A stretch of DNA of 36,342 nucleotides from Candidatus Uhrbacteria bacterium (GCA_003509895.1 DOMJ01000004.1:1-36342); one strand, 5' to 3'; positions 4,414-31,500 are shown, counted from the stretch's first letter. Notes: generated by a model from the letters alone, not told the origin. Made by a program: numbers and translations.

Positions 4414-4457
4414 AGTCAGAATAGTTTACCAGATTCACCCCAAACGCAAAACCGCCT

Positions 4458-4494
4458 AAAAAAGAACAGCCCCACCGAGACGTTCGGTGGGGCC
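4458..4494 (-). terminator. Intrinsic terminator ending RNA unit 2, 44 nt upstream of the cysS ATG
   Basis: On the minus strand: GCCCCACCGA-ACGTC-TCGGTGGGGC (10-bp stem) followed by TGTTCTTTTTT. Confidence 0.75.
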
Positions 4495-4726
4495 GGGAGG
4501 TGTGGCGCCACCGACAACCGGTGGAGCTGTTCACACGACAGCGAGGGATCTGGGGGGCGGGATCGTCCCTCTGTGCCATCGTGGCCCGTGTTTCCGTTTC
4601 GGGGTGGGAGGTCCCTGCAACGGCCGGGAGTCGAAGAATCGACTCTACCGTGGCCACGGGCGGCCACACGCCGACACGCAGACAAGAGGCATTGGCCGTG
4701 CCGCTGTCCGTCGGTGTCGTGTAAAG
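4458..4726 (-). ncRNA. GC-rich structured RNA unit 2 (about 270 nt). Candidate cis-regulatory leader/attenuator of cysS, or a stand-alone sRNA of unknown class
   Basis: It has its own promoter (4729-4757) and terminator. The 5' ACACGACA (4715-4722) pairs with TGTCGTGT (4533-4540), closing a multi-hairpin core; examples are GTGGCC/GGCCAC and GAGTCGA-TTCT-TCGACTC. No SD-preceded ORF is present. Confidence 0.5.
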
Positions 4727-4728
4727 CG

Positions 4729-4757
4729 AAAGTATCACAGACAAAAAAAGAGGTCAA
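4729..4757 (-). promoter_or_regulatory. Sigma70-type promoter of RNA unit 2
   Basis: Minus strand TTGACC-N17-TACTTT, embedded in TGTGATACT (an extended -10-like TG). Confidence 0.55.
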
Positions 4758-4761
4758 GCCC

Positions 4762-4935
4762 TAAAACAGCAACCCCACCGGAGTCTACGGTGGGAGAGGA
4801 GACCCACCGAACAACGATGGGGTTACTGGCATGTCCGTCCTGAAGCCCGGGGACATTACTACGCGCGGGCTCACGCCTATGTGCGGCGTGGACGTTGGCA
4901 CGGGGTATACCTCTAGGAGATAGACCGTGCGCACC
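4762..4935 (-). ncRNA. GC-rich structured RNA unit 1 (about 170 nt), unknown class
   Basis: Bounded by promoter 4941-4969 and the hairpin CCCACCG-TAGACTC-CGGTGGG followed by GTTGCTGTTTT (4762-4795). Internal hairpins include GCACGG/CCGTGC, CACGCC/GGCGTG and ATGTCC/GGACAT. Confidence 0.45.
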
Positions 4936-4940
4936 AAAAG

Positions 4941-4969
4941 AAACTATCACAAACAAAAATAGAGGTCAA
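4941..4969 (-). promoter_or_regulatory. Sigma70-type promoter of RNA unit 1
   Basis: Minus strand TTGACC-N17-TAGTTT (TGTGATAGT). About 40 nt are near-identical to the unit 2 promoter region. The -35 overlaps the terminator hairpin (ATAGAGG...CCTCTAT) of the upstream gene. Confidence 0.55.
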
Positions 4970-5003
4970 GCCCCTTGCCTCTATTTAAAGAAATAGAACC
5001 ATT

Positions 5004-5615: not shown

Positions 5616-6860
5616 TTATCCGAGGACCAGACCTTCGACAACGCTCGTGAAGGCGTTTGCCTCGCGGAGGCGCTCTTGTCCGAACATCTCCTCGAAGACC
5701 CCTCGCACAAACGGAAGCTGTGAAGTGCCTCCGGTCAGAAAGACCTCGTCAATATCGTTGACACCCAGTCCGGCTCGATCCAAAGTCTGCTGAATGGTGT
5801 TCTGGTACTCGATCATCATGCGCTGGCTTGCCATTGCATAATCAACCAAGGTCACTCGCCGTCGAATGTCCAGATCACGAACGAAGAACTCTCTGAACTC
5901 GAAGGTCGTCTCGTCGGTAGCGGAAAGTGCTCGCTTACACGCCTCGATGGCCCATGCCATGGGATAGCCCAGATCCTCGAAGATGAGCTTACGAAGTCTC
6001 TGGACTTTGTACTTTTCATCCATGCGTGCCTCGGAACGGCCCAGAAACTCTGCAAGAGAGTGACTTCTGAGTCGATGAACGTCATAGAGCCTCAGGATAC
6101 TATGTAGAACCGACGGGTTCCACACATCTTCTCCCTTCTGGTCTAGCCGACGAATCATTGATCCACGACCGAACTCGTCCAGTAGAAACGCCTCCATGAA
6201 TCGCGCATCGAGGGCATCACCCGCCTTTGCGACTCCAGAGACAGCCAATACATCCTGCGAACGGTCGTACCCGCCTACGTAGGACGGACCAACTCGTAGG
6301 ATCGCGAAGTCGGCTGTACCACCCCCAAAGTCCCCGACCAGGATCATTCTGTTCTGCTCCAGACCGAGTTCGTACCGCATTGCAGCTGCTACCGGCTCTA
6401 ACCGAAAATCGTAGCTCGTGAGGCCGGCCATGTTCGCAGCTTTTTGAAGGCGAGCGAAGGCACTCTCCTCTTTACGGTTATCGGCATGAAAGCGCACAGG
6501 TCGACCGATGGTGACATGGTCGACCATGCGACCTGTCACCGCCTCAGTACTCTCAACGAGAAAGCGCATGTACATCGCCACTAGCTCGGTGAACTCGTAC
6601 TTCTGGCCGCCAACGGTAGTCCGGGGCACATCATGTGGGAGGAATGACTTCAGCGAGCGGAGGAATCGCCCTTCGAAGCCGTCTTCCATATACGTCCTAA
6701 GGGCTGCATTACCGTACGAGATCACCCCTCTGTCAACCGAGTGAATGACTGTACGTTGAGTGTCTTCCCCTTCTACCAACTGCACAATTTGCGGAAGCCC
6801 ATCGGCCTCCACAATCGCTACAGCCGAGTTCGTGGTACCAAAGTCAATTCCAATTCGCAT
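5616..6860 (-). CDS. Hsp70-family ATPase with the nucleotide-binding domain only (YegD-like; no substrate-binding domain)
   Basis: IGIDFGTTNSAVA, LVGDFGGGTADFAIL and VFLTGGTSQLPFV match the three Hsp70/actin-fold signatures. At 414 aa it is too short to hold a peptide-binding domain. AGGAGG SD is present. Confidence 0.8.
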   Translation of the reverse strand: MRIGIDFGTTNSAVAIVEADGLPQIVQLVEGEDTQRTVIHSVDRGVISYGNAALRTYMEDGFEGRFLRSLKSFLPHDVPRTTVGGQKYEFTELVAMYMRFLVESTEAVTGRMVDHVTIGRPVRFHADNRKEESAFARLQKAANMAGLTSYDFRLEPVAAAMRYELGLEQNRMILVGDFGGGTADFAILRVGPSYVGGYDRSQDVLAVSGVAKAGDALDARFMEAFLLDEFGRGSMIRRLDQKGEDVWNPSVLHSILRLYDVHRLRSHSLAEFLGRSEARMDEKYKVQRLRKLIFEDLGYPMAWAIEACKRALSATDETTFEFREFFVRDLDIRRRVTLVDYAMASQRMMIEYQNTIQQTLDRAGLGVNDIDEVFLTGGTSQLPFVRGVFEEMFGQERLREANAFTSVVEGLVLG

Positions 6861-13078: not shown

Positions 13079-14044
13079 TTACTCAATCTGAAACGTACCC
13101 GCACCGGAACGATTATACACATACGCCTGATCCCCAAGACCAAAGCGAATCTCATTCGGATGATCCAACAGAACGTCCCAAGGAATCCTCAACTCATCAA
13201 TCTGCCCCTTGGCAACCGTCGTTGAATCCGTAGCAGAAGACAATAGATAGTTTGGATCCTCTCCGTTTGTATCAATGGTTACCTCCAAATCCCCGCGTGT
13301 GATGGCGGTTGACCATCCGCTATCGTCGCTCGTGGATGTTGCGGATCCAATCAACACACGCTCCTTGGTTGTAAGGTCGATCGTGTATACACGCTCTGTT
13401 GCTTCACCCGCATCACCCATCACCATTGTTATAAGGAGCTTATCTCCCACCATCTGTGCATCACCAAAGGTCCCCATTTCATGACCGGGAATCACATTCT
13501 CCCCACGGATGGAAGAGAAAAATCCGAGCACGTCTACCTCATGAACGTTTTTTTGACGCATCACAACACACAGGCTCTGACCAAAGGCACCACAATAGTC
13601 TTGGTTTATGTCCGTATCTGGAACGGTCATAATCCGTATGGTGTCCAAAGCACCTAATCGGAGTCGTCCCGCCTCTACAAGCAGACCCGTCCTAAGTGCC
13701 TCGGAAAGCATGGACTGAATCTCTGCGGACGCATCTGCGGCGGATGGGTATCCCTCAAGCGCATATTGATCGTAGATGGATTTGATGGTTACGGCGTCCA
13801 CTTCATTGGAAATCGACTCCTCCAGAGACTCCACCTCTTCTGCGTCTACGTCGATCGCTTCATCTACGTCTTCTGCACGAGGCAACGTTGTGAGCACTCC
13901 TCCACCCACAATGGCGATCGACACAATGAAGAGTGCCATCCAAAACGCAAAAGAACTTTCTCGAGCATGAGCAGCCGGCACAGAGGAATCCGTGTAAGCT
14001 GCTTTTTTTGATGATCGTTTTGTGGTGCTCTTTTTTGCAGGCAT
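13079..14044 (-). CDS. Membrane-anchored hypothetical protein (321 aa) sitting between dnaK and dnaJ
   Basis: ORF track. Lys-rich N-terminus, one TM helix (FAFWMALFIVSIAIVGGGVLTTL), an acidic linker, then an extracytoplasmic domain with no motif I recognise. Confidence 0.6.
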   Translation of the reverse strand: MPAKKSTTKRSSKKAAYTDSSVPAAHARESSFAFWMALFIVSIAIVGGGVLTTLPRAEDVDEAIDVDAEEVESLEESISNEVDAVTIKSIYDQYALEGYPSAADASAEIQSMLSEALRTGLLVEAGRLRLGALDTIRIMTVPDTDINQDYCGAFGQSLCVVMRQKNVHEVDVLGFFSSIRGENVIPGHEMGTFGDAQMVGDKLLITMVMGDAGEATERVYTIDLTTKERVLIGSATSTSDDSGWSTAITRGDLEVTIDTNGEDPNYLLSSATDSTTVAKGQIDELRIPWDVLLDHPNEIRFGLGDQAYVYNRSGAGTFQIE

Positions 14045-17884: not shown

Positions 17885-17938
17885 ATGCACGAGATGGCCG
17901 TGACCGTCCGAAGACGGATCGATTCTAGGGAGACGGTG

Positions 17939-18808
17939 ATGAAGAATTTCACACCCCCGCAGTTGGACATGTTCCGGGAGGCCGCCGCATTGGAGGCCTC
18001 CGTACTCAACCTCAGCCGAGCCCAGTTCCAAGGAGTCCTGGGCCACAAGAGGCTTCGCGGCATGCTGCGAGACCTTCTGGTGGAGCTCGGACAGGAGCGC
18101 CCGCCCAACGCGGACGAGGCTCGCGTGCGTCTGTGGGACCATTTCCTGGGGGTCTCCGATACCCGCAAGGTCTTCGGGGACCTGATCTCGGACAACATGG
18201 TCCGAGAACTGGGCGACGTGCCTGATGCTCTGCTGGCTCGTGTCAAGGCGAGCCAAAGTTCGGGCGAGATGCCGCACCTCCGGCTCTTCCTGGATCCGGG
18301 GCTGTCTATCGACGTCATGGTCCAGGTGCGAGGCGTCAACTACCGGTCCACCTACGGCGACATGATGCTCGCCAGTACCAACCAGCCTTGCTGGCGGCTG
18401 ATGGATGTTCGCCGCTTGCACAACCAGAGTGCCCGGCGGATCCTGACCATGGAGCTGATGGGTCTTCTCTCCAAGGGCATCAGCCAGACGGGTGAGTTGA
18501 AGCAGCTCCAGCTCGTCCGCAAGGACACCGCTGGTCACACGGTCTATATGACCTCGCGACAGGAGGTTCAGGGCCACAAGGTGCAAATTATCGGGTCGGT
18601 TCGGCCGAGCCAGGAGATGACCATCACGGTCCCCCTGATCCGTCCGTCGAACCAGGAATGCCGGCACGCGACGCCGGAAGAGATCCGATCCGCCTACAAC
18701 AGGGAGATTGCGCTGGAAAGCGTTACGCTGCCTGACGGGAGGCGGTTCTTCTCCACCAGGATCGACGGAGTCGTTGTCCTGGTGAGCGAGATCACCTGGA
18801 TCAAGTAG
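17939..18808 (+). CDS. GC3-rich orphan protein A (289 aa from ATG 17939; the track ORF starts at 17885)
   Basis: The open frame has strong G/C third-position bias. GGGAGA SD sits 5 nt before ATG 17939 (MKNFTPPQLDMF...). No motif recognised. The long antisense ORFs here are the expected artefact of GC3 bias. Confidence 0.65.
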   Translation: MKNFTPPQLDMFREAAALEASVLNLSRAQFQGVLGHKRLRGMLRDLLVELGQERPPNADEARVRLWDHFLGVSDTRKVFGDLISDNMVRELGDVPDALLARVKASQSSGEMPHLRLFLDPGLSIDVMVQVRGVNYRSTYGDMMLASTNQPCWRLMDVRRLHNQSARRILTMELMGLLSKGISQTGELKQLQLVRKDTAGHTVYMTSRQEVQGHKVQIIGSVRPSQEMTITVPLIRPSNQECRHATPEEIRSAYNREIALESVTLPDGRRFFSTRIDGVVVLVSEITWIK

Positions 18809-19199: not shown

Positions 19200-19274
19200 G
19201 GCCCCATCGTCTAACGGTTAGGACAGCAGGTTCTCATCCTGCAAATCCGGGTTCGATTCCCGGTGGGGTCACCA
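19200..19274 (+). tRNA. tRNA-Glu (anticodon CUC), CCA encoded
   Basis: I folded the cloverleaf by hand. Acceptor GGCCCCA/TGGGGTC, D-stem GTCT/GGAC, anticodon stem GCAGG/CCTGC with loop TTCTCAT, a 4-nt variable loop, T-arm CCGGG-TTCGATT-CCCGG, discriminator A, then CCA. Confidence 0.9.
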
Positions 19275-19409
19275 ACAAAAATGCATCAGCTTGCCTGGTG
19301 CTTTTTTGTTGGCACCTCCCGCGGAAATTGAATAAGAGGGATGGTAAGGGAGAACTTCTCCCTTACTTGGGGAGGGTAACAGCGAATCCGTTTTACGGAT
19401 GAGTGCCCT
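19263..19409 (+). repeat. 147-bp direct repeat, copy A (starts inside the tRNA-Glu 3' end)
   Basis: Hand alignment with 20613-20759 shows 142/147 identical positions. The five mismatches are at repeat positions 40, 60, 63, 64 and 72. Confidence 0.9.
19275..19312. terminator. Bidirectional terminator hairpin immediately after tRNA-Glu (part of the 147-bp repeat)
   Basis: ACAAAAA-TGCATCAG-CTTGC-CTGGTGC-TTTTTTGT. In copy B the extended stem is a perfect 18 bp and includes the CCA end. Confidence 0.65.
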
Positions 19410-19473
19410 AGGGGCGGAAGCTCCTAGGGAGAGTGGAGCCGCCCATAGTCACGGGCGTGCGAAGCGACGTGAG

Positions 19474-19491
19474 TTCCCGGTGGGGTCACCA
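19474..19491 (+). repeat. Exact 18-nt duplicate of the tRNA-Glu 3' end (TTCCCGGTGGGGTCACCA)
   Basis: Identical to 19257-19274. No T-arm or 5' acceptor partner lies upstream. Confidence 0.85.
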
Positions 19492-19493
19492 GA

Positions 19494-19527
19494 AACATCG
19501 TCTCAGAAATGAGGCGATGTTTTTTTG
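19494..19527 (+). terminator. Strong intrinsic terminator right after the duplicated tRNA 3' end
   Basis: AACATCGTCTCA-GAAA-TGAGGCGATGTT (12-bp stem, GNRA loop) followed by TTTTTTT. Confidence 0.8.
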
Positions 19528-19566
19528 TAATATTCCATATCCCTCCCTGATCCCTTTTACAAAGCT

Positions 19567-20361
19567 TTGAGGGGTGTATTCATTGGTGCTATACTTAGTT
19601 CACTGGTGGTAAGTATACATTGTTTATACTCTTCACTGGTTTTTTCATCAAGACTGTTGTGTATGGACGTTATGAAAATGACACCGAAGATTTATCGAGA
19701 TACCCCTTTCTTCTTTTGGAGCATGGTTGTGTACTTTTTGGTATTTCCGATCTTGTATCTTGTCATGGATATTTTCCTTGCCGTGTCCATTATTTTTCCT
19801 CTTGTTCTCATCGGATCGATAGGGAGCCTGATAAAAGATCGGTTGTTGGGCAAGGTTGGATCAATCTTACTTCTGCTTCCATTAGTCTTAGGGTTCATTC
19901 CAGAAGGTTCGAAAGAATTTCTCGAGGGCGTGTCGAGGTTGTATCCATATTTACTGATGCTGTTCTTTGTCGTTATTTCTGTCGTGGAATTTCATAAACA
20001 GTTCAAACAAAGAGTGCATGTAGAAGATAAACGTTTGACCGTTCTAAAGAGAGGTCTTGCTGTGAATGCATTTGTTGTATTTTTCGCAGGCTGGCAAGGA
20101 CTTGTTGACTATTCAAATGGTCAGACCCAGCCATTCCTATTGGCTATTGAAGAAAACGTGCCCTTCTTCAATAGCGTAAAACTTTTACATTTCATCCTTC
20201 CTGTATTTGCACTCATCTCACTTGTGGGATTCTGCGCTTCTCTTTTCATCTATCTCAAGCATAAAAGATACGGCAAGTACGTTCTTTGGTACGCGCTATC
20301 CTTATGCGTATCGTTGTTGCTGTTTAGCTTTTTGTTCATGCTAGGCATCGCAGGTGTTTAG
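19567..20361 (+). CDS. AT-rich polytopic membrane protein (264 aa; start uncertain)
   Basis: ORF track (TTG start; internal ATGs at MDVMKM). Six to seven hydrophobic helices. Its composition is clearly AT-richer than its surroundings. Confidence 0.55.
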   Translation: MRGVFIGAILSSLVVSIHCLYSSLVFSSRLLCMDVMKMTPKIYRDTPFFFWSMVVYFLVFPILYLVMDIFLAVSIIFPLVLIGSIGSLIKDRLLGKVGSILLLLPLVLGFIPEGSKEFLEGVSRLYPYLLMLFFVVISVVEFHKQFKQRVHVEDKRLTVLKRGLAVNAFVVFFAGWQGLVDYSNGQTQPFLLAIEENVPFFNSVKLLHFILPVFALISLVGFCASLFIYLKHKRYGKYVLWYALSLCVSLLLFSFLFMLGIAGV

Positions 20362-20612
20362 GATTTCTTGGGGCTGGTTAGAGAGAAGTTCTCAGATACT
20401 CACTCGGAACACATCCAGTATTTCACTTGGTGTTTTGTTTAGAGCAGTTATTACATTCTTATTCGAAGAAGTGTCTTTAAAATCTCCTAATAATACGGTA
20501 GTACATTGAATTAGATAACTCTTCCCGATCCGTCATACCCCCGCCACAACCAACTCTCGAAACTCCATCCACCCCCTCATCTCCTCCACCCATTGGTTCC
20601 AACGAAGTCCCC

Positions 20613-20759
20613 GTGGGGTCACCAACAAAAATGCATCAGCTTGCCTGGTGCATTTTTGTTGGCACCTCCCGTGGGGATTGAATCAGAGGGATGGTAAGGG
20701 AGAACTTCTCCCTTACTTGGGGAGGGTAACAGCGAATCCGTTTTACGGATGAGTGCCCT
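20613..20759 (+). repeat. 147-bp direct repeat, copy B (preceded by an imperfect tRNA 3' end, TCCCCGTGGGGTCACCA)
   Basis: See copy A. Confidence 0.9.
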
Positions 20760-26933: not shown

Positions 26934-28751
26934 CTATCGTTCTGGGGGAATTTGTTTATAGTGTAGCAGAAAATCCGCAATCTCCCCAAACAGAGGAGCG
27001 GCTGTTCCCGTGGCCCATTGGGAAGAACGCGGGTGATCAATACGCGTCAGCATCACAAACCGAGGATCGCGTGCCGGACCGTATCCCACAAATGTAGCAA
27101 TCGTCTCATCTGACTTGTAGCCCGTGCCACTGTCATTGGCCACCTGTGCCGTTCCTGTTTTTCCAGCGATATAGTATCCATCCACCTTCGCCGGACCCGC
27201 ATGCCCATTTTCTACCACGGAGACAAGCATTGCCGTTACAAGTTGGGCTGTTTTTGACGAGATCACTTGGCGCAATTGTTCTGGTTCTGTCGCCTCTACT
27301 GTTCCATCCGGATATCGAATCTCCTTTACAATGTAGGGTTGCATCATCGCTCCTCCGTTTGCAAGGGCCGTAAAAGCGCGTGCCATTTGTAGCGGAGTAA
27401 CCGTTAATCCTTGCCCGTAAGAGCTTGTTGCCGAGTAAATTTCTTGCCCTTTATCCACAGCGCTAATTTCTCCCTGTACCTCACTGTTGAGTGGGATACC
27501 GATCGCTTCACCAAATCCAAAGTCATGCACATACCGCGCAAACACATCCCCGCCCATTTTGCGCATCACAAAAATCATTCCGGTATTGAGCGACCTTTCC
27601 AGCACATTTGTCATTGTTTGGATACCGTTTGCCTTTAAGTCAGAATTGCGAATCGTAAAACGATCAATTTTTTCTTCACCTGTATCGTTGTAGGTCATAT
27701 TGGGCGTTACCACTCCCGAATCTAACCCCGCCGCCATAATCAATGGTTTAAAAACAGAACCCGGTTCATACGCAGAAAAAATCGTCTGATTATTATATGT
27801 TGCAACCGATTCAACCTCGCTGTAAGCGTTTGGATTATAGGTTGGCACTCCACACATGGCCCAAATAGCTCCCGTTTTTGCATCCAAAATAATCAGTGAT
27901 CCACTATCGGCATCAAATCGATCTACGTTCTCTTGCAGCTTTGTGCAGGCAACGTGCTGAATAGTGCGATCAAGCGTTAACACAAGATCGGCACCGTCCT
28001 GCGCACTTTGCAAGTTGCGTGCACCTATACTGATCCAGTTTCCTTTTGCATCCAATTCAGAAAACAAAAACCCAGGCTGACCCGCAAGCGTCTCATTAAA
28101 GTATCCTTCCAAGCCGTATTTCCCACTGGATGTTCCATCGGCATCTTCACTCACAAACCCGGTTATATGGGCCGTTGTTTCCTCTTCCGGGTAATAGCGA
28201 AATTGTTCACGGAGCAAATGAATTCCCGAAAGATTCGCCAAATGAATCTCATTGCCGACTTCCTCCGATACGCGGCGTTTAATCGGTTCGTATGGGTCGT
28301 CGGCTTTTTGAAGTTGTGCCAAAACGCGATCATATTCGGATGGGCTTTGTTCTGTTTTTCCCTCCTCGTTTATAGATTCAACAACCTCGTGAGACAATCC
28401 GAGGATATCGGAAAGCACCTGCGCCGTTCTGACAGGGTCGTCCACCTTGCGCGGCTCCGCCCAAACCAGGTTAAGATATTGATTTGTGGCAATGGCGACC
28501 TCTGTTCCATTTGCATCCTGCACAATAAGGGATCCACGTTGTGGGTAGAGATCTTTGTAGAGCTCCCGTTGACCACTCGCCAATGCCTCATACACTCCAT
28601 GTTTGAGCACCTGTAAGTACCCAAGACGGACAATTAAAATCGCCGCCGCCAAAAAAAATCCCGCCTGCAAAAGCCGAATACGGCGTGGATGTATAGCCGA
28701 CACGGAACGTTTGCCGTAATGCGTACGTGTTTTAGAGGTTTTTTGTGTCAT
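26934..28751 (-). CDS. ftsI: Class B penicillin-binding protein / peptidoglycan transpeptidase
   Basis: N-terminal TM anchor, SVFK (SxxK) and KTGTA motifs; 605 aa. Confidence 0.85.
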   Translation of the reverse strand: MTQKTSKTRTHYGKRSVSAIHPRRIRLLQAGFFLAAAILIVRLGYLQVLKHGVYEALASGQRELYKDLYPQRGSLIVQDANGTEVAIATNQYLNLVWAEPRKVDDPVRTAQVLSDILGLSHEVVESINEEGKTEQSPSEYDRVLAQLQKADDPYEPIKRRVSEEVGNEIHLANLSGIHLLREQFRYYPEEETTAHITGFVSEDADGTSSGKYGLEGYFNETLAGQPGFLFSELDAKGNWISIGARNLQSAQDGADLVLTLDRTIQHVACTKLQENVDRFDADSGSLIILDAKTGAIWAMCGVPTYNPNAYSEVESVATYNNQTIFSAYEPGSVFKPLIMAAGLDSGVVTPNMTYNDTGEEKIDRFTIRNSDLKANGIQTMTNVLERSLNTGMIFVMRKMGGDVFARYVHDFGFGEAIGIPLNSEVQGEISAVDKGQEIYSATSSYGQGLTVTPLQMARAFTALANGGAMMQPYIVKEIRYPDGTVEATEPEQLRQVISSKTAQLVTAMLVSVVENGHAGPAKVDGYYIAGKTGTAQVANDSGTGYKSDETIATFVGYGPARDPRFVMLTRIDHPRSSQWATGTAAPLFGEIADFLLHYKQIPPER

Positions 28752-28770
28752 TTGCCTTTAGTATACCACC

Positions 28771-28799
28771 TTGACAAAATCCGCATTTTCTGATAGGTT
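28771..28799 (+). promoter_or_regulatory. Promoter of GC-rich cassette B, 20 bp from the divergent ftsI start codon
   Basis: TTGACA-N17-TAGGTT in the context CTTGACAAAAT. Confidence 0.55.
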
Positions 28800-28912
28800 A
28801 GACCGTCACATTCCGTCTGAGGTTTGTGCAAAATTCACCAGAAGCAGGCCTGTTTAAGGCTATGCAACACATTTAATTTGATCTGCGCCTACGTGCGCGA
28901 GAGGAGGACGCG

Positions 28913-31060
28913 ATGAGCGTGAAGAAGATTGGTTGGATGGGCTTCCACTCGGGTCGTCCGCATTTGGACGACTTGTTGGCAGCCGTGGTTGGATTCCTGC
29001 TTGGCCTCTTTGAGGTCGAGTTCATGGATCCCGAGTGCTCGGTGAACCTGATCCTGGACGCGAGCGGCATCTCCAATGCCCTGGCGCGCCAGATGAGCGA
29101 GACGGGGCGGGACGCCAACGGTGTGCAACTGCACGCCGCGTGGATCGGTACCACCCCCAACGGTGGGCCCTCCCTCGTCTCCGAGGGCGACCAGTGGTGG
29201 TCGCCCTACGACGAGCACGGGAGTGGCAACCCCGCGGACTCGGCCACGGAGCTTATGCTCCATCTGGCCGGAGACGACAAGGCCATTGGCCGGCGGCTCC
29301 AGACCATCTTCCGGGGATGGGGCATCCGCGCCTCGGAGGCGCAGGTCGCGGAGTCGGTGGAAAAGCTCCACCACTTTGTGGCCTACACTACCATGAAGGA
29401 CAACTTTCCCGTCGCCATGCGCGGCGGAATCAGCTGGCTCCTCAAGCAGCTGAACCGGGTGTCCTGCTTCCAGATCGGAGAAGGTGGAAGGATCCGGGAG
29501 GAGTCCTACTCCTCCCAGGAGGTCCTCCGGGACCTCCGGTGGATCTACCGCCTGCTCGTCACCTACATGACGAGCAACCTGCAGATTGAGACCTCCGATC
29601 TGGCCGCCGTGGACCAGGAGATGGTTCACTGGTACCTCGGTCGCGAGGACGTGAACCAGGTATGGAAGCCGGACACCGCTCCGCGCACGATGGCGGAGCT
29701 GACGGTCATGGTCCGGGGGGAGGTGCGCCGAAAGGCGCTGGAGGCCAAAAAGGCCAACCGGGCGTTCAGCCCGCCCTCCACGCTGCTCCGCCGTTTGCGG
29801 AGCCTCACCACACTGGTGAGTGACCTGCGCAACCCAGCCGATTGGACATCGGTGGAGGCATGGATGCTCCACCAGTGGATCGGGGCCAGGAAGATCCACC
29901 TCGGGATGGACGTGGGCAACACCACGACCATCCAGGAGGTGATCGCCAACCTCGCCGCCCGCGCGGAAGCTCTCAAGGAGAGCGCGCGGGCGGACGCAGT
30001 CCGCCAGCAGGAGAAGCTGGAGGGCTGGATCCGACAGCTGCAGGAGATGCAGCTGCGCGTGGAGGACGAAAAGCAGACCCGCCAGCTGATGGCGGGAGAT
30101 GAACGGATGGACGAGCGGACCGCCGCCTCCCCCTACGGGGTGGTGGCGACCACCGTCCTGCTCCTGCGGCGTTCCCGCCGCAGGGACGGCCTGGCCTTCC
30201 CCGAGGGTCAGGCCGTGGCCCAGGAGTACCTCTTCATGGCGCTGGATGCGCTGTGGGGAAAGATGCTCCTTGCGGAGGCAGCCTCCCGTCAGATCCAGGA
30301 GGCACAGGAGGACCCCACCTGTACGCCGGCCATCGCGGCCGACTGGCAGGTGAAGGGAGTGGAGCAGCCGGGACTGCTCCACTCCGATGGCATCAACCCC
30401 GAGACCCCGGCGGAGGCCCGCCGGATCTTGGGCAAGGGCCAGGTGGGTGGTCGCCAGGTGAAGCGTTTCCCGCTGATCCTGGTCACCTGCGAGAAGCTGC
30501 CAGACGGGACTCCCTTTGGGAGCGCCTATCTAGGAGCTGACCAGCGGTACTTCGGTACCGACTGGACGGACGGATTCTTCCGTCACCTCGCGTCCTGGCT
30601 CCGAGTCATGGAACTCCGGCGCCAGGGCAACCCGTTGCCGGAGGACCTCGATACCCTCGAGGCGCCGGACAAGGTGCAAGACCACGTCTGGTTCCTGCAC
30701 CTCAACGGGGACGGAAAGGCCGTCCAGGTGATGGCAAAGAGCCTCCACCGCCGGGATTCACCCGGTACGGAGCTGGACGCCAAGCAGGAGATCCTGCCCG
30801 CCCAACTGGCGGTCTACACGGTCTTCTGTGCGTGGCGTGCTGTCGGAGTCTTTGGCAGCCAGCAAGGCCGCCTCAACCTCCGGGCGCGAGACAGCGCCCT
30901 GCGGGCGCTCCGCCACCGCCTCGCCTCCACCGCCGACATGGCCGCGGAGCTGCAGCTCATCCTGAGCGAGCTCCGCAGCCAGATCGTCATCCACCAGGCC
31001 GCCGTCCTCCCCCTACGGGAGTCGAAGGCGCCGGGTGAAGAGCTCGCCCCCACGAGCTAA
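28913..31060 (+). CDS. GC3-rich orphan protein B (715 aa), Trp/Arg-rich with a central coiled-coil-like segment
   Basis: GAGGAGG SD 6 nt before the ATG. 715 stop-free codons in sequence where I counted 40/60 and 44/60 G+C in two sample lines, with pronounced G/C at third positions. No catalytic motif recognised. Confidence 0.7.
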   Translation: MSVKKIGWMGFHSGRPHLDDLLAAVVGFLLGLFEVEFMDPECSVNLILDASGISNALARQMSETGRDANGVQLHAAWIGTTPNGGPSLVSEGDQWWSPYDEHGSGNPADSATELMLHLAGDDKAIGRRLQTIFRGWGIRASEAQVAESVEKLHHFVAYTTMKDNFPVAMRGGISWLLKQLNRVSCFQIGEGGRIREESYSSQEVLRDLRWIYRLLVTYMTSNLQIETSDLAAVDQEMVHWYLGREDVNQVWKPDTAPRTMAELTVMVRGEVRRKALEAKKANRAFSPPSTLLRRLRSLTTLVSDLRNPADWTSVEAWMLHQWIGARKIHLGMDVGNTTTIQEVIANLAARAEALKESARADAVRQQEKLEGWIRQLQEMQLRVEDEKQTRQLMAGDERMDERTAASPYGVVATTVLLLRRSRRRDGLAFPEGQAVAQEYLFMALDALWGKMLLAEAASRQIQEAQEDPTCTPAIAADWQVKGVEQPGLLHSDGINPETPAEARRILGKGQVGGRQVKRFPLILVTCEKLPDGTPFGSAYLGADQRYFGTDWTDGFFRHLASWLRVMELRRQGNPLPEDLDTLEAPDKVQDHVWFLHLNGDGKAVQVMAKSLHRRDSPGTELDAKQEILPAQLAVYTVFCAWRAVGVFGSQQGRLNLRARDSALRALRHRLASTADMAAELQLILSELRSQIVIHQAAVLPLRESKAPGEELAPTS

Positions 31061-31093
31061 CCCCCTCCTGCACATGGAGGGACGCGAAAAAAG

Positions 31094-31130
31094 AGGGGCT
31101 CCGCAATCTGCGTGAGCCCCTTTTCCTTTT
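31094..31130 (+). terminator. Terminator of cassette B, homologous to the cassette A terminator
   Basis: AGGGGCTC-CGCA-ATC-TGCG-T-GAGCCCCT followed by TTTCCTTTT. Confidence 0.75.
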
Positions 31131-31140
31131 ATCTCTTTTT

Positions 31141-31500
31141 CTATTGTGCCGCAGCGATCGCTGCAACAAGTTTTGCCCTGAGACCCGTGAACGCCGTAAC
31201 GGCTGCCTCATAATCTTCATCTCGAATCGCACGCGATCCCACATACCCTTCTTCCTCCCACGCGCTCAGCTGCGTAGCATCGACACCTGCAGTACTCGCA
31301 TCAATGAGCAATTGACCAACTTCGAGCATCAAATTCAACGACTCCGTTTTTGCAGCACTGTTCATAACAGGTACTGTGGCGCTTGGCACCTCTTGCGGAG
31401 GAGCCGCGATCGGTTCTGGCGTAATCGAATCAGATGGTTGAGAAAAACACCCGGCTCCTAAAAAAGAAACAGCCGCCAGAGATAAAATGAGTTTGTTCAT
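31141..31500 (-). CDS. Small lipoprotein
   Basis: Signal peptide with lipobox: MNKLILSLAAVSFLGAGC. Confidence 0.7.
   Translation of the reverse strand: MNKLILSLAAVSFLGAGCFSQPSDSITPEPIAAPPQEVPSATVPVMNSAAKTESLNLMLEVGQLLIDASTAGVDATQLSAWEEEGYVGSRAIRDEDYEAAVTAFTGLRAKLVAAIAAAQ

Follow-up and report, generated by a model that had tools for sequence, protein, structure and literature searches.

Closest Described Systems

The closest known system to the protein described here is MYG1 (UPF0160, PF03690), which belongs to the DHH branch together with RecJ, NrnA, PPX1 and family II pyrophosphatase. At the level of the locus, replacement-type flexible loci are comparable, in which hypervariable genes lie at fixed positions, e.g., O-antigen/capsule loci and restriction-specificity genes; flexible genes are usually AT-rich. 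For genes with a locally raised G + C content, the classic eukaryotic case of GC-biased gene conversion (gBGC) is mouse Fxy at the pseudoautosomal boundary, and the process was reportedly described in bacteria by Lassalle et al. in 2015.

The window analyzed here is a stretch of 36,342 nucleotides from Candidatus Uhrbacteria (Patescibacteria), in which an open reading frame (ORF) for a 715-aa protein lies next to ftsI. Like the genes of replacement-type loci, the ORF is found at a fixed position between conserved core genes, its allelic types are divergent and incongruent with the core phylogeny, and a gene-sized recombination tract is present. It differs in being a single cytoplasmic protein gene instead of a surface-polysaccharide or restriction-modification cluster, in that all of its alleles are homologous, and in being GC-rich. 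The ORF holds the position immediately upstream of ftsI, where mraZ, rsmH and ftsL are missing in this clade, but it is divergent from ftsI, not co-oriented, and has no sequence similarity to MraZ (PF02381), RsmH or FtsL. With gBGC it shares a locally very high GC3, a shift of the amino acids to GC-rich codons, accelerated protein change and the coincidence of GC3 enrichment with evidence for recombination, whereas the effect is much larger and more sharply gene-bounded than is known from bacteria, the UTRs not being enriched.

Taken jointly, the locus is read as an ancient single-gene unit, fast-evolving, allele-exchanged and GC3-rich, with a putative phosphoesterase role and under GC-directed pressure; the probability of this joint reading is estimated at about 50%.

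Gene Structure and Transcription Signals

At the locus, one uninterrupted frame of 715 codons was found together with the following signals:

28913-31060, plus strand: CDS of the 715-aa protein (ORF list, substitution pattern, homologues, AlphaFold2 model)
28901-28907, plus strand: Shine-Dalgarno sequence GAGGAGG, 5 nt upstream of the ATG (sequence)
28771-28799, plus strand: promoter of the ORF with TTGACA (28771-28776), a spacer of 17 nt and the extended -10 TG-n-TAGGTT (28791-28799) (sequence)
28760-28768, minus strand: conserved AGTATACCA box, candidate extended -10 for ftsI (sequence and alignment of loci)
31091-31130, plus strand: intrinsic terminator consisting of a GC-rich hairpin (31091-31124) and a downstream UUUUCCUUUU tail (RNA fold)

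Frame and Shine-Dalgarno sequence agree with the first-pass annotation of the window, which had also placed the promoter 20 bp from the ftsI start codon and postulated that the ftsI control region is either shared or displaced. Indeed, 19 nt separate the promoter from the ftsI start codon (28749-28751, minus strand), and the ORF and ftsI have a compact divergent control region in common. Across eight aligned orthologous loci, the TTGACA is invariant and the -10 fits TAnnTT in 8/8. A consensus scanner overlooked this promoter because its -10 matches TATAAT at 3/6 positions. The AGTATACCA box, which reads TGGTATACT on the minus strand, is located 8 nt upstream of the ftsI ATG. Beside the TTGACA it is largely kept in the orthologous loci, with TA, CA and C invariant (8/8), and TGGTATACT is a putative extended -10 promoter element for ftsI.

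The terminator hairpin has a folding energy of -36.6 kcal/mol (z = -4.8; 0/200 shuffles equally stable), and the relatives L037 and L005 have the same sequence over this segment. Due to an A-run upstream of it, the terminator may also serve the convergent 119-aa gene. With a promoter, Shine-Dalgarno sequence and terminator of its own, the ORF forms a transcription unit by itself, flanked by ftsI, the 119-aa lipoprotein-like gene and a DUF5665 gene.

Conservation of the Locus

The order of the slot is RNR-(CobA)-DUF5665 (←), the ORF (→) and ftsI-murF (←). An ortholog was found in the same slot at every locus with an FtsI of at least 59% identity and upstream sequence (L001-L005, L030-L039, L040-L043, L065 and L068), even where the protein identity is 21-30%. 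The search covered about 1.84 billion proteins, each representing a cluster from a total of about 15 billion. All 11 representative homologues (clusters) with contigs read are situated at this locus (11/11), and no homologue outside the ftsI locus could be found in this set. An alignment-based homologue search returned only the same four proteins; a member of the homologue clusters, PIR47998.1, is annotated as "hypothetical protein [Candidatus Uhrbacteria bacterium]".

The ORF is absent only in outgroups with an FtsI identity at or below 50%. Their arrangements vary, being either the classical mraZ-rsmH-ftsL-ftsI or DUF4178 plus a 397-aa gene, and in more distant Patescibacteria mraZ-rsmH-ftsL lies directly upstream of ftsI. 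A tblastn search with MraZ, RsmH and FtsL of L006 and L007 gave matches in outgroup loci only. Across the clade, the partnership of ftsI, murF and a Ser/Thr kinase beside the ORF is invariant.

Around the promoter-to-terminator unit, no bracketing repeat pair, direct or inverted, and no adjoining recombinase, integrase or transposase gene were found, and the sole tRNA is 9.6 kb distant. The first-pass annotation had regarded the gene as an inserted cassette in the place where mraZ, rsmH and ftsL usually precede ftsI. The place is correctly described, as outgroups carry these genes there; the insertion is not, since same-slot orthologs are present wherever FtsI is at least 59% identical and the relatives carry the gene as an ancestral member of the locus. 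The unit already adjoined the ftsI promoter back-to-back in the common ancestor of this Uhrbacteria sub-clade and has remained there, and the ORF is kept at this exact spot by the whole sub-clade and is not a recent insertion. A second gene of the window, ORF A, whose homologues the first-pass annotation had suggested as genomic partners, was rejected as a partner: L037, the closest relative, is the only one with a homologue of ORF A, which neither shows a sequence relationship to the 715-aa ORF nor is co-localised with it.

Coding Potential

Substitutions in the ORF are biased to the third codon position, with 35/21/75 differences by codon position, and dN/dS is 0.23-0.49 compared to 0.03-0.06 for ftsI. 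The protein is under relaxed but real purifying selection. The family alignment of 12 sequences (A2) contains 16 invariant and 23 nearly invariant columns. For the window protein, a soluble form without signal peptide or transmembrane segment was predicted. The ORF is a genuine protein gene; its product, 600-740 aa long, is folded and soluble and falls into none of the described families.

A long frame is also open on the opposite strand:

28889-30382, minus strand: 497-aa antisense ORF in the codon-aligned frame, a by-product and not a gene (coordinates, codon table)

Stop-free antisense runs among the orthologs range from 167 to 728 codons (430-728 in most). The frame is open because the sense codons TTA, CTA and TCA are avoided, and as its openness varies among orthologs, this ORF was rejected as a gene and regarded as a by-product of codon bias. 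An Rfam scan for an RNA element in the ORF gave no match. A chimeric contig, considered in the first-pass annotation, was rejected as well: independent assemblies from NCBI, JGI, ENA and Logan show the same junctions.

Predicted Structure and Relation to MYG1

The AlphaFold2 model calculated from 12 sequences reached a pLDDT of 87 and a pTM of 0.85. An earlier AlphaFold model from five sequences was of low quality (pLDDT 63), and searching with it by Foldseek was meaningless. The modelled architecture comprises an N-terminal alpha/beta domain (about residues 1-200), a helical middle (about 200-470) and a C-terminal alpha/beta domain (about 480-695). The stretch 340-466, noticed before as heptad-like, is modelled as long helices.

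Pfam gave no match for the window protein at E ≤ 1 or for the 12 family members at E ≤ 10; PF03690, which true MYG1 proteins carry, and DHH were without a match in these 12 even at E = 10. Scans of the same proteins against NCBIfam, PHROGs and PADLOC were likewise negative, 0 families of the PADLOC-DB 2.0 defence-protein models were matched at E ≤ 1, and a sequence profile search of the PDB returned only noise (Exportin-4 at E = 0.012). With no confident match to a known family in Pfam, NCBIfam, PHROGs, PADLOC or the PDB, the initial description as an orphan holds in the form of a near-orphan.

Foldseek with the 12-sequence model against the PDB and BFVD, a check proposed beforehand, yielded nothing significant (best E = 0.15, TM 0.12-0.31). 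Among the non-significant matches, DHH proteins are top or near-top: PPX1 (2qb6; E 0.15, probability 0.47, TM 0.12/0.20) at rank 1 and family II pyrophosphatase (1k23) at rank 15 in the PDB, and a viral DHH phosphohydrolase at rank 9 in BFVD. MYG1 structures (24ah and others, contained in the PDB sequence copy) were not among the 50 Foldseek matches listed. Biotin-protein ligase was rejected as a structural match, a TM of about 0.3 being too weak.

Three conserved motifs were located in the N-terminal domain:

28946-28972, plus strand: codons H12-x4-H17-x-D19-D20 (FHSGRPHLDD), candidate metal-binding motif I (alignments A2 and A3, hhalign)
29210-29218, plus strand: codons D100-E101-H102 (YDEHG), nearly invariant in the family, putative equivalent of the DHH motif (A2)
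29396-29404, plus strand: codons K162-D163-N164, D163 invariant, aligned with D-N-G of MYG1 (A2, hhalign)

All 12 family members have H12, H17 and D19, followed by D or E at position 20, so that the N-terminal H-x-G-x-x-H-x-D-E signature of MYG1 is present in the family. The alignment by hhalign pairs this motif with the invariant H52, G54, H57, D59 and E60 of MYG1 (THNGTFHCDE), whereas D100-E101-H102 is in register with YDHHQ of MYG1 only in a relaxed run. The order of the motifs is collinear with MYG1 (FHsGrPHlDD/THNGTFHCDE, GG...YDEHG/GGEYDP..YDHHQ, SAT/SSAG, KDN/DNG). For the comparison of family (A2) and MYG1 (A3) profiles, hhalign gave a probability of 1.3-3.2% and an E of 0.014-0.042; the score of 24.2 compares to 15.1 ± 2.7 for column shuffles, and 1/150 shuffles scored as high. 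A similarity of the C-terminal half to MYG1 is not supported, as 4/60 shuffles were as good.

The family resembles MYG1 in the H-x-G-x-x-H-x-D-[DE]-x-L-A motif after the first beta-strand, in the putative GG...YD[EH]H, S-A-[TG] and D-N motifs of the same order and similar spacing, and in a bilobal model of two alpha/beta domains joined by a linker. It differs in being twice as long, with a helical insert of about 270 residues, in having no HMM-level match and a profile-profile probability of 1-3%, in the C-terminal domain, which is not alignable, and in its confinement to one Uhrbacteria sub-clade. In addition, Gly79 stands in place of the Asp of MYG1 motif II (VDVGG), and DHH becomes DEH.

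The ORF may encode a divergent metal-dependent phosphoesterase, as judged from these sequence motifs. The earlier statement that the protein has no nucleotide-binding, nuclease or other motif was too strong, given an invariant His/Asp/Glu set resembling the MYG1/DHH motifs. The protein would be a metal-dependent phosphoesterase or nuclease of two lobes, with a distant likeness to the MYG1/DHH enzymes and a predicted metal site in the N-terminal alpha/beta domain formed by H12, H17, D19, E63, D100-E101-H102 and D163. The invariant E63 might compensate for the missing motif II Asp, and access of the substrate would be shaped by the enlarged helical insert together with the C-terminal alpha/beta domain. 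The family, whose predicted fold is confident and without significant structural neighbours and which has a putative metal site, is a tractable enzyme target, possibly with a new phosphoesterase or nuclease activity encoded beside the cell-division genes in a lineage of uncultured episymbionts.

Sequence Divergence and Allele Exchange

The ORF protein shows 21-50% identity where FtsI shows 55-78%, e.g., 24% compared to 78% between L002 and L034 and 48% compared to 74% between the window and L001. It evolves 5-10 times faster than its neighbours and exists as deeply divergent allelic types, which do not track the core-gene phylogeny.

In comparison to L037 and L005, an exchanged tract was delimited:

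28771-31146, no strand: exchanged allele tract, about 94% nucleotide identity to L037 and L005 (sliding identity, boundary alignments)

The flanks of this tract have identities of about 77% (left) and 65-82% (right) to the same relatives. Between the window and L037, the amino-acid identity is 93% for the ORF and 85% for FtsI, and dS is about 0.157 for the ORF and 1.64 for ftsI. The nucleotide identity, about 0.77 outside and about 0.94 inside roughly 28771-31146, points to a recent allele exchange: the unit was recently passed between two lineages as an exact promoter-to-terminator tract. The earlier view of a cassette is supported in the sense that this module was exchanged separately. In total, one clear recombination event is documented. 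The ends of the tract coincide with the ends of the gene, which is unexpected under plain homologous recombination.

Base Composition and Codon Usage

The G + C content of the ORF is 66%, compared to about 49% in the flanks. As the first-pass annotation had noted, this is the largest compositional anomaly of the window, with values of 0.65-0.69 across 29001-31000 and 0.45-0.52 in the flanks. The excess is almost wholly due to third positions (GC1/2/3 of.68/.45/.86, ftsI.58/.42/.45), and C- or G-ending codons are favoured for every amino acid. It is limited to the CDS, the 5′UTR and 3′UTR having 0.50 and 0.54, respectively. The high G + C content is accompanied by a GARP-over-FYMINK amino-acid signature: Arg, Ala and Trp are raised and Ile, Lys, Phe, Tyr and Asn lowered. 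The richness in Trp and Arg described before is confirmed by 2.7% Trp (1.0% in host genes) and 8.3% Arg (5.9%).

In all orthologs, GC3 is.74-.92 compared to.34-.73 in neighbouring genes, an offset of 0.19-0.41. The GC3/GARP signature persists in every ortholog whatever the host G + C content, and because the same offset is kept throughout, the host-unlike composition is not a sign of recency. Translational selection for high expression was rejected as the cause of the high GC3, since DnaK, GrpE, DnaJ and RNR have ordinary GC3 and do not share the bias.

Evaluation of Alternative Explanations

If the ORF were a foreign cassette that had entered only recently from a high-GC donor and displaced mraZ/rsmH/ftsL upstream of ftsI, this would account for a GC3 of 0.86 next to flanks of 0.45-0.52, for the unit's own promoter and terminator, for the mraZ-rsmH-ftsL-ftsI order of outgroup Patescibacteria and for a history separate from that of the flanks. 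However, all clade members found have the gene at the same site, even those with a protein identity of 21-30%, the promoter is conserved and interlocked with the ftsI control region, att-like repeats, integrase and transposase are missing, the roughly 1.84 billion representative proteins hold no homologue outside the locus, and the GC3 bias is undecayed despite deep divergence. This explanation is largely refuted and very improbable. The case illustrates that a marked compositional island does not by itself prove a recent horizontal acquisition, the anomaly of the ORF being ancient, heritable and gene-bounded. The chance is smaller still, close to negligible, that the ORF is no functional gene and merely a chance frame in GC-rich DNA, or that the locus instead yields a structured RNA or the protein of the 497-aa antisense ORF. 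Long ORFs do arise in several frames of GC-rich DNA, and the codon-aligned antisense frame is open over 430-728 codons in most orthologs, but that frame is open since TTA, CTA and TCA are rare, and its openness varies among orthologs. The substitutions fit the plus frame (35/21/75 by codon position; dN/dS < 0.5), for which start, Shine-Dalgarno sequence, promoter and terminator are kept and whose alignment yields conserved residues and a confident fold, and Rfam gave no match.

With respect to function, the ORF could be an arms-race gene, e.g., a single-protein anti-phage/anti-plasmid nuclease or an episymbiont host-interaction factor under diversifying selection, advantageous alleles of which pass between lineages. 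Deeply divergent allelic types incongruent with the core tree, a dN/dS raised to 0.23-0.49 from the 0.03-0.06 of ftsI, the recent gene-sized allele transfer and the possible hydrolase-like motif set are consistent with this. It is nevertheless considered unlikely, as dN/dS is below 1 overall, no PADLOC-DB 2.0 family is matched at E ≤ 1, a partner gene is missing, and the gene is strictly present at a fixed core position, in contrast to the patchy distribution usual in defence genes; a surface role is unlikely because the soluble protein has no signal peptide or transmembrane segment. Quite improbable, and more so than an arms-race function, is a lineage-specific accessory of cell division or the cell wall, co-regulated with ftsI, murF and the kinase via the divergent promoter and replacing the lost mraZ/rsmH/ftsL neighbourhood. 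The back-to-back promoters kept across the clade, the invariant company of these three genes and the long helical segments speak for it, but the whole region of about 20 kb is collinear, so that the adjacency of ORF and ftsI carries little specific information. Furthermore, a divergence down to 21-50% identity is unlike structural division proteins, and both a similarity to MraZ, RsmH or FtsL and a membrane anchor are missing.

Genes With a GC3-Rich Signature

Under the joint reading of an ancient, GC3-rich single-gene unit, the GC3 signature and the fast protein change would come from a DNA-level GC-directed pressure at frequently recombining loci, as in gBGC. Alternatively, selection of an unspecified kind on the coding sequence would be the cause. 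The GC excess ends at the CDS boundaries, which gene conversion alone would not respect. To our knowledge, the effect on GC3 (+0.2 to +0.4) far exceeds that described in the literature on bacterial gBGC, and we know of no bacterial report of an enrichment as sharply gene-bounded. A literature search for such GC3-rich, fast-evolving genes in CPR/Uhrbacteria returned nothing relevant.

It is conceivable, although doubtful, that Uhrbacteria-type CPR genomes hold a distinct gene class, of which this ORF would be the largest: genes subject to a gene-bounded GC-directed process, with a GC3 of 0.75-0.9 in genomes of 45-55% G + C, fast protein divergence and alleles circulating as promoter-to-terminator units. 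Candidate processes would be recombination hot spots with strong gBGC, a targeted mutagenic or repair mechanism, and selection on mRNA composition. If true, bacteria would have their own equivalent of gBGC hot-spot genes like mouse Fxy, and lineage-specific proteins could arise by a route not known before. The ORF joins four unusual traits in a gene at a core position, i.e., GC3 enrichment, 5-10 times faster divergence, incongruence and an exact gene-sized transfer. Two questions thereby become testable, namely which forces keep up codon-usage classes within reduced CPR genomes and whether gBGC can act so strongly in bacteria.

Several unrelated, fast-evolving genes without Pfam match in the same genomes carry the GC3-rich signature, which is therefore a property of a gene class of this lineage and not a sign of recent foreign origin. 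These genes are also located at fixed positions, and their identity between L001 and L002 is 62-71%, compared to 92-94% for their neighbours.

Gene structure and coding potential of ORF715

The GC-rich gene adjoining ftsI (ORF715) is a single frame of 715 codons, as described in the first-pass annotation, and all of the expression signals proposed there for it were found. Features of the region are:

28771-28776, plus strand: -35 box TTGACA of the ORF715 promoter, with TG-n-TAGGTT after a spacer of 17 nt
28901-28907, plus strand: Shine-Dalgarno sequence GAGGAGG, with the ATG beginning 5 nt on
28913-31060, plus strand: ORF715 CDS
31091-31130, plus strand: terminator, a strong hairpin with U-tract (-36.6 kcal/mol, z = -4.8)
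31141-31500, minus strand: convergent 119-aa gene, whose start (MNKLILSLAAVSFLGAGC) is a lipoprotein-type signal with lipobox

Because it has its own promoter, Shine-Dalgarno sequence and terminator, the unit is monocistronic and self-contained. ORF715 encodes a real protein. Compared with the closest relative, differences at codon positions 1, 2 and 3 amount to 35, 21 and 75, and dN/dS was 0.23-0.49 in three comparisons (Nei-Gojobori). The alignment of 12 homologues has 16 invariant columns and another 23 that are nearly so; His, Asp, Glu and Trp account for many of these. AlphaFold2 on these sequences gave a model (pLDDT 87, pTM 0.85) with an N-terminal alpha/beta region (~1-200), a long helical middle (~200-470), into which the heptad-like stretch noticed earlier falls, and a C-terminal alpha/beta region (~480-695). 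No hydrophobic segment indicative of a membrane anchor was detected in the protein, and no Rfam family matches the region. A 497-aa antisense ORF (28889-30382) was rejected as a gene and is regarded as a by-product of sense codon usage: it is the codon-aligned frame, in which stops would equal sense TTA, CTA and TCA, codons almost never used in ORF715, and the orthologs differ in how far their antisense frame stays free of stops (167 to 728 codons).

The ORF715 promoter lies 19 nt from the start codon of ftsI on the opposite strand, and the promoter sharing postulated for the two genes holds. The core AGTATACCACC-TTGACA-N17-TAGGTT is largely kept in all aligned orthologous loci. The minus strand of the conserved box AGTATACCA reads TGGTATACT, 8 nt ahead of the ftsI ATG, and is a plausible candidate for an extended -10 of ftsI; beside the conserved ORF715 promoter core, this would make the two promoters interlocked. 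The distance of this putative -10 box from the ATG suggests that the ftsI mRNA may be leaderless or have a very short leader. The back-to-back promoter pair lies within 28749-28800 of the window. In the related loci L001 and L002, ~160 bp extra are located between the ftsI start and the conserved box.

Conservation and history of the locus

Four ORF715 homologues came from a word-indexed search over 5.8 billion proteins, and nine (20-52% identity) from scanning 1.84 billion cluster representatives exhaustively with HMMER. Every homologue with a readable contig occupies the same slot, in which TrmB, Na/H exchanger, Ser/Thr kinase, murF and ftsI are followed by the divergent ORF and then, on the strand of ftsI, by a small gene, DUF5665, (CobA) and class II ribonucleotide reductase (RNR). 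The convergent 119-aa gene is present in most orthologous loci and missing from two (L032 and L033); it is poorly conserved (38% identity to L001, 76% to L005). In an FtsI-seeded metagenome scan, which yielded 48 loci, a family member was found divergently upstream of ftsI in all six loci with an FtsI at least 59% identical to that of the window and in none with an FtsI at most 50% identical. Outgroups have the classical mraZ-rsmH-ftsL-ftsI order or other co-directional genes ahead of ftsI (DUF4178 with a 397-aa gene, or CobA with a 143-aa gene). Neither flanking repeats of the unit nor a nearby recombinase was found. The inserted foreign cassette of the first-pass annotation is thus refuted for any recent time scale by orthologs in the same slot throughout the clade, and a chimeric contig is excluded by identical junctions in independent NCBI, JGI, ENA and Logan assemblies. 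A cluster member, PIR47998.1, is titled "hypothetical protein [Candidatus Uhrbacteria bacterium]", which names the lineage and leaves the protein unannotated. ORF715 is a clade-restricted, unannotated protein family.

Within this slot, the ORF715 protein diverges far faster than its neighbours and out of step with them.

Protein identity of FtsI and of ORF715 between pairs of loci
L001 and L002: FtsI 94%, ORF715 71%
L002 and L034: FtsI 78%, ORF715 24%
Window and L001: FtsI 74%, ORF715 48%
Window and L032: FtsI 60%, ORF715 31%
Window and L037/L005: FtsI 85%, ORF715 93%

This is one locus with deeply divergent allelic types. The last pair is reversed, dS being 0.157 for the ORF against 1.64 for ftsI, and sliding nucleotide identity is ~0.77 in murF and ftsI, ~0.94 from ~28771 to ~31146 and 0.65-0.8 thereafter, the breaks being located at the -35 box and just beyond the terminator. 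A uniformly slow synonymous rate cannot explain this result, because the ORF pS between L001 and L002 is 0.44, near the saturation expected under such skewed codon usage. The simplest reading is that the allele was recently replaced laterally as an exact promoter-to-terminator unit. The term cassette therefore applies to this modular exchange, but not to a recent insertion of foreign DNA.

Origin of the high G + C content

As noted from the sequence at first sight, ORF715 is the largest compositional anomaly in the 36 kb, with a GC of 0.65-0.69 over 29001-31000 versus 0.45-0.52 on either side. The coding sequence alone bears the excess (5'UTR 0.50, first 120 nt of the CDS 0.55, CDS body 0.63-0.80, 3'UTR 0.54), and nearly all of it resides in third codon positions.

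GC at codon positions 1/2/3
ORF715:.68/.45/.86
ftsI:.58/.42/.45
murF:.62/.43/.49
Ribonucleotide reductase:.52/.42/.52

The GC3 excess is heritable: every ortholog has a GC3 of 0.74-0.92, exceeding ftsI, murF, RNR and DUF5665 of the same contig by 0.19-0.41, at a host GC3 from 0.34 to 0.73. C- or G-ending codons are preferred for every amino acid. Arg, Ala and Trp are raised and Ile, Lys, Phe, Tyr and Asn lowered, which is the direction expected of directional GC pressure.

ORF715 looks like one of a lineage-wide class of GC3-rich orphan genes. In related 22-kb loci, all Pfam-domain genes have host-like GC3, whereas several genes without Pfam match reach 0.71-0.90; every Pfam-annotated gene in the genomes bearing such orphans has a GC3 of 0.4-0.65. 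The following examples were recorded:

Related loci, beside TrmB: gene of 126-146 aa
Related loci, after an RNase H-like gene: genes of 266-278 aa and 70-85 aa
L001 1706-2146, 18213-19013 and 19168-19425; L002 900-1649; L034 18123-19928; L048 95-1780: GC3-rich genes without Pfam match
L080 2243-3094 and L076 2160-3149: examples in outgroup loci
Window 17885-18808, plus strand: ORF A, 307 aa, no Pfam match, GC3 0.81

These orphans are separate families unrelated to ORF715, soluble and Arg-rich. In the clade of the window (L001, L002, L030, L034) they hold fixed positions and evolve fast, with 62-71% identity between L001 and L002 versus 92-94% for their neighbours. For ORF A, codon-position GC identifies the plus frame as the gene, not the overlapping 330-aa minus ORF. 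Compared with its homologue in L037 (330-1253), the closest relative, it shows elevated mosaic nucleotide identity (0.87-0.97, falling to 0.72 in a patch, 18201-18400) and a dN/dS of 0.49. ORF A had been considered as a partner of ORF715 and was rejected, since its homologue occurs solely in L037 and it is unrelated to ORF715 in sequence.

The data suggest that a lasting GC-directed force acts on a group of genes that recombine and evolve fast. Selection for high expression was rejected as the cause because chaperone and RNR genes lack the bias. GC-biased gene conversion is the known mechanism tying recombination to GC3 and, where strong, also drives amino-acid change; Lassalle and colleagues are said to have treated it in bacteria in 2015. 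It could maintain the GC3 of ORF715-type genes, but in its simple version it is at odds with the very large effect and with an enrichment that ends at the CDS boundaries. Alternatively, GC3 may be maintained by selection on mRNA or codon composition, or by a shared allele pool in which GC-richer Uhrbacteria dominate. The interest of ORF715 lies chiefly in this compositional and evolutionary phenomenon.

Candidate function of ORF715

A confident match to a known family was sought by AlphaFold, Foldseek and library searches and was not found: ORF715 has no match in Pfam, PADLOC, NCBIfam, PHROGs or by PDB sequence search, and Foldseek of the confident model gave nothing significant in PDB or BFVD. 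The best clue is the invariant N-terminal signature FHSGRPHLDD, which comes after the first beta-strand and resembles THNGTFHCDE of MYG1 (UPF0160). The 12-sequence alignment was compared profile to profile with an alignment of genuine MYG1 proteins, all carrying PF03690. Hhalign paired motif I, and relaxed settings brought GG...YDEHG/GGEYDP..YDHHQ, SAT/SSAG and KDN/DNG into register (counted as four further motifs). The comparison reached a probability of just 1-3% and a score above 149 of 150 column-shuffled controls. The C-terminal half gave no MYG1 signal. In the Foldseek lists, the DHH-family proteins PPX1, family II pyrophosphatase and a viral DHH phosphohydrolase were top or high, but at E 0.15-0.9. 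The most likely biochemical reading, at roughly one chance in three, is that ORF715 may be a divergent metal-dependent phosphoesterase (MYG1/DHH-like); the protein is not filed as a member of that family. As modelled, the family combines a confidently predicted fold without significant structural match and a candidate metal site.

Other features of the window

4440-4990, minus strand: GC-rich stretch (~0.6) between cysS and a 174-aa gene
19200-19274: tRNA-Glu(CTC)

The first of these looks non-coding because GC1/2/3 is flat. It contains two tandem units, each opening with a near-identical promoter-like box, GGGCTTGACCTCT(a/t)TTTTTGT(t/c)TGTGATA(g/c)TTTC, followed by a structured GC-rich RNA and a final hairpin with T-run. 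The fold z-score is -7.3, and no Rfam family was matched at threshold; the two units are candidates for small RNAs not yet described.

In the 3' end of the tRNA starts a 152-nt direct repeat (19258-19409 and 20608-20759, 96% identical). The copies enclose a 1.35-kb low-GC (0.39-0.40) insert with a 264-aa multi-pass membrane ORF (19567-20361), and L037 has one repeat copy and no insert. The 19200-20759 region has the appearance of a small element that integrated at the tRNA and lacks an integrase.

Furthermore, a 414-aa truncated Hsp70-like paralogue (5616-6860, minus strand) is located upstream of a glycosyltransferase gene, and a 321-aa gene without Pfam match (13079-14044, minus strand) sits between dnaK and dnaJ of the hrcA-grpE-dnaK-dnaJ operon.
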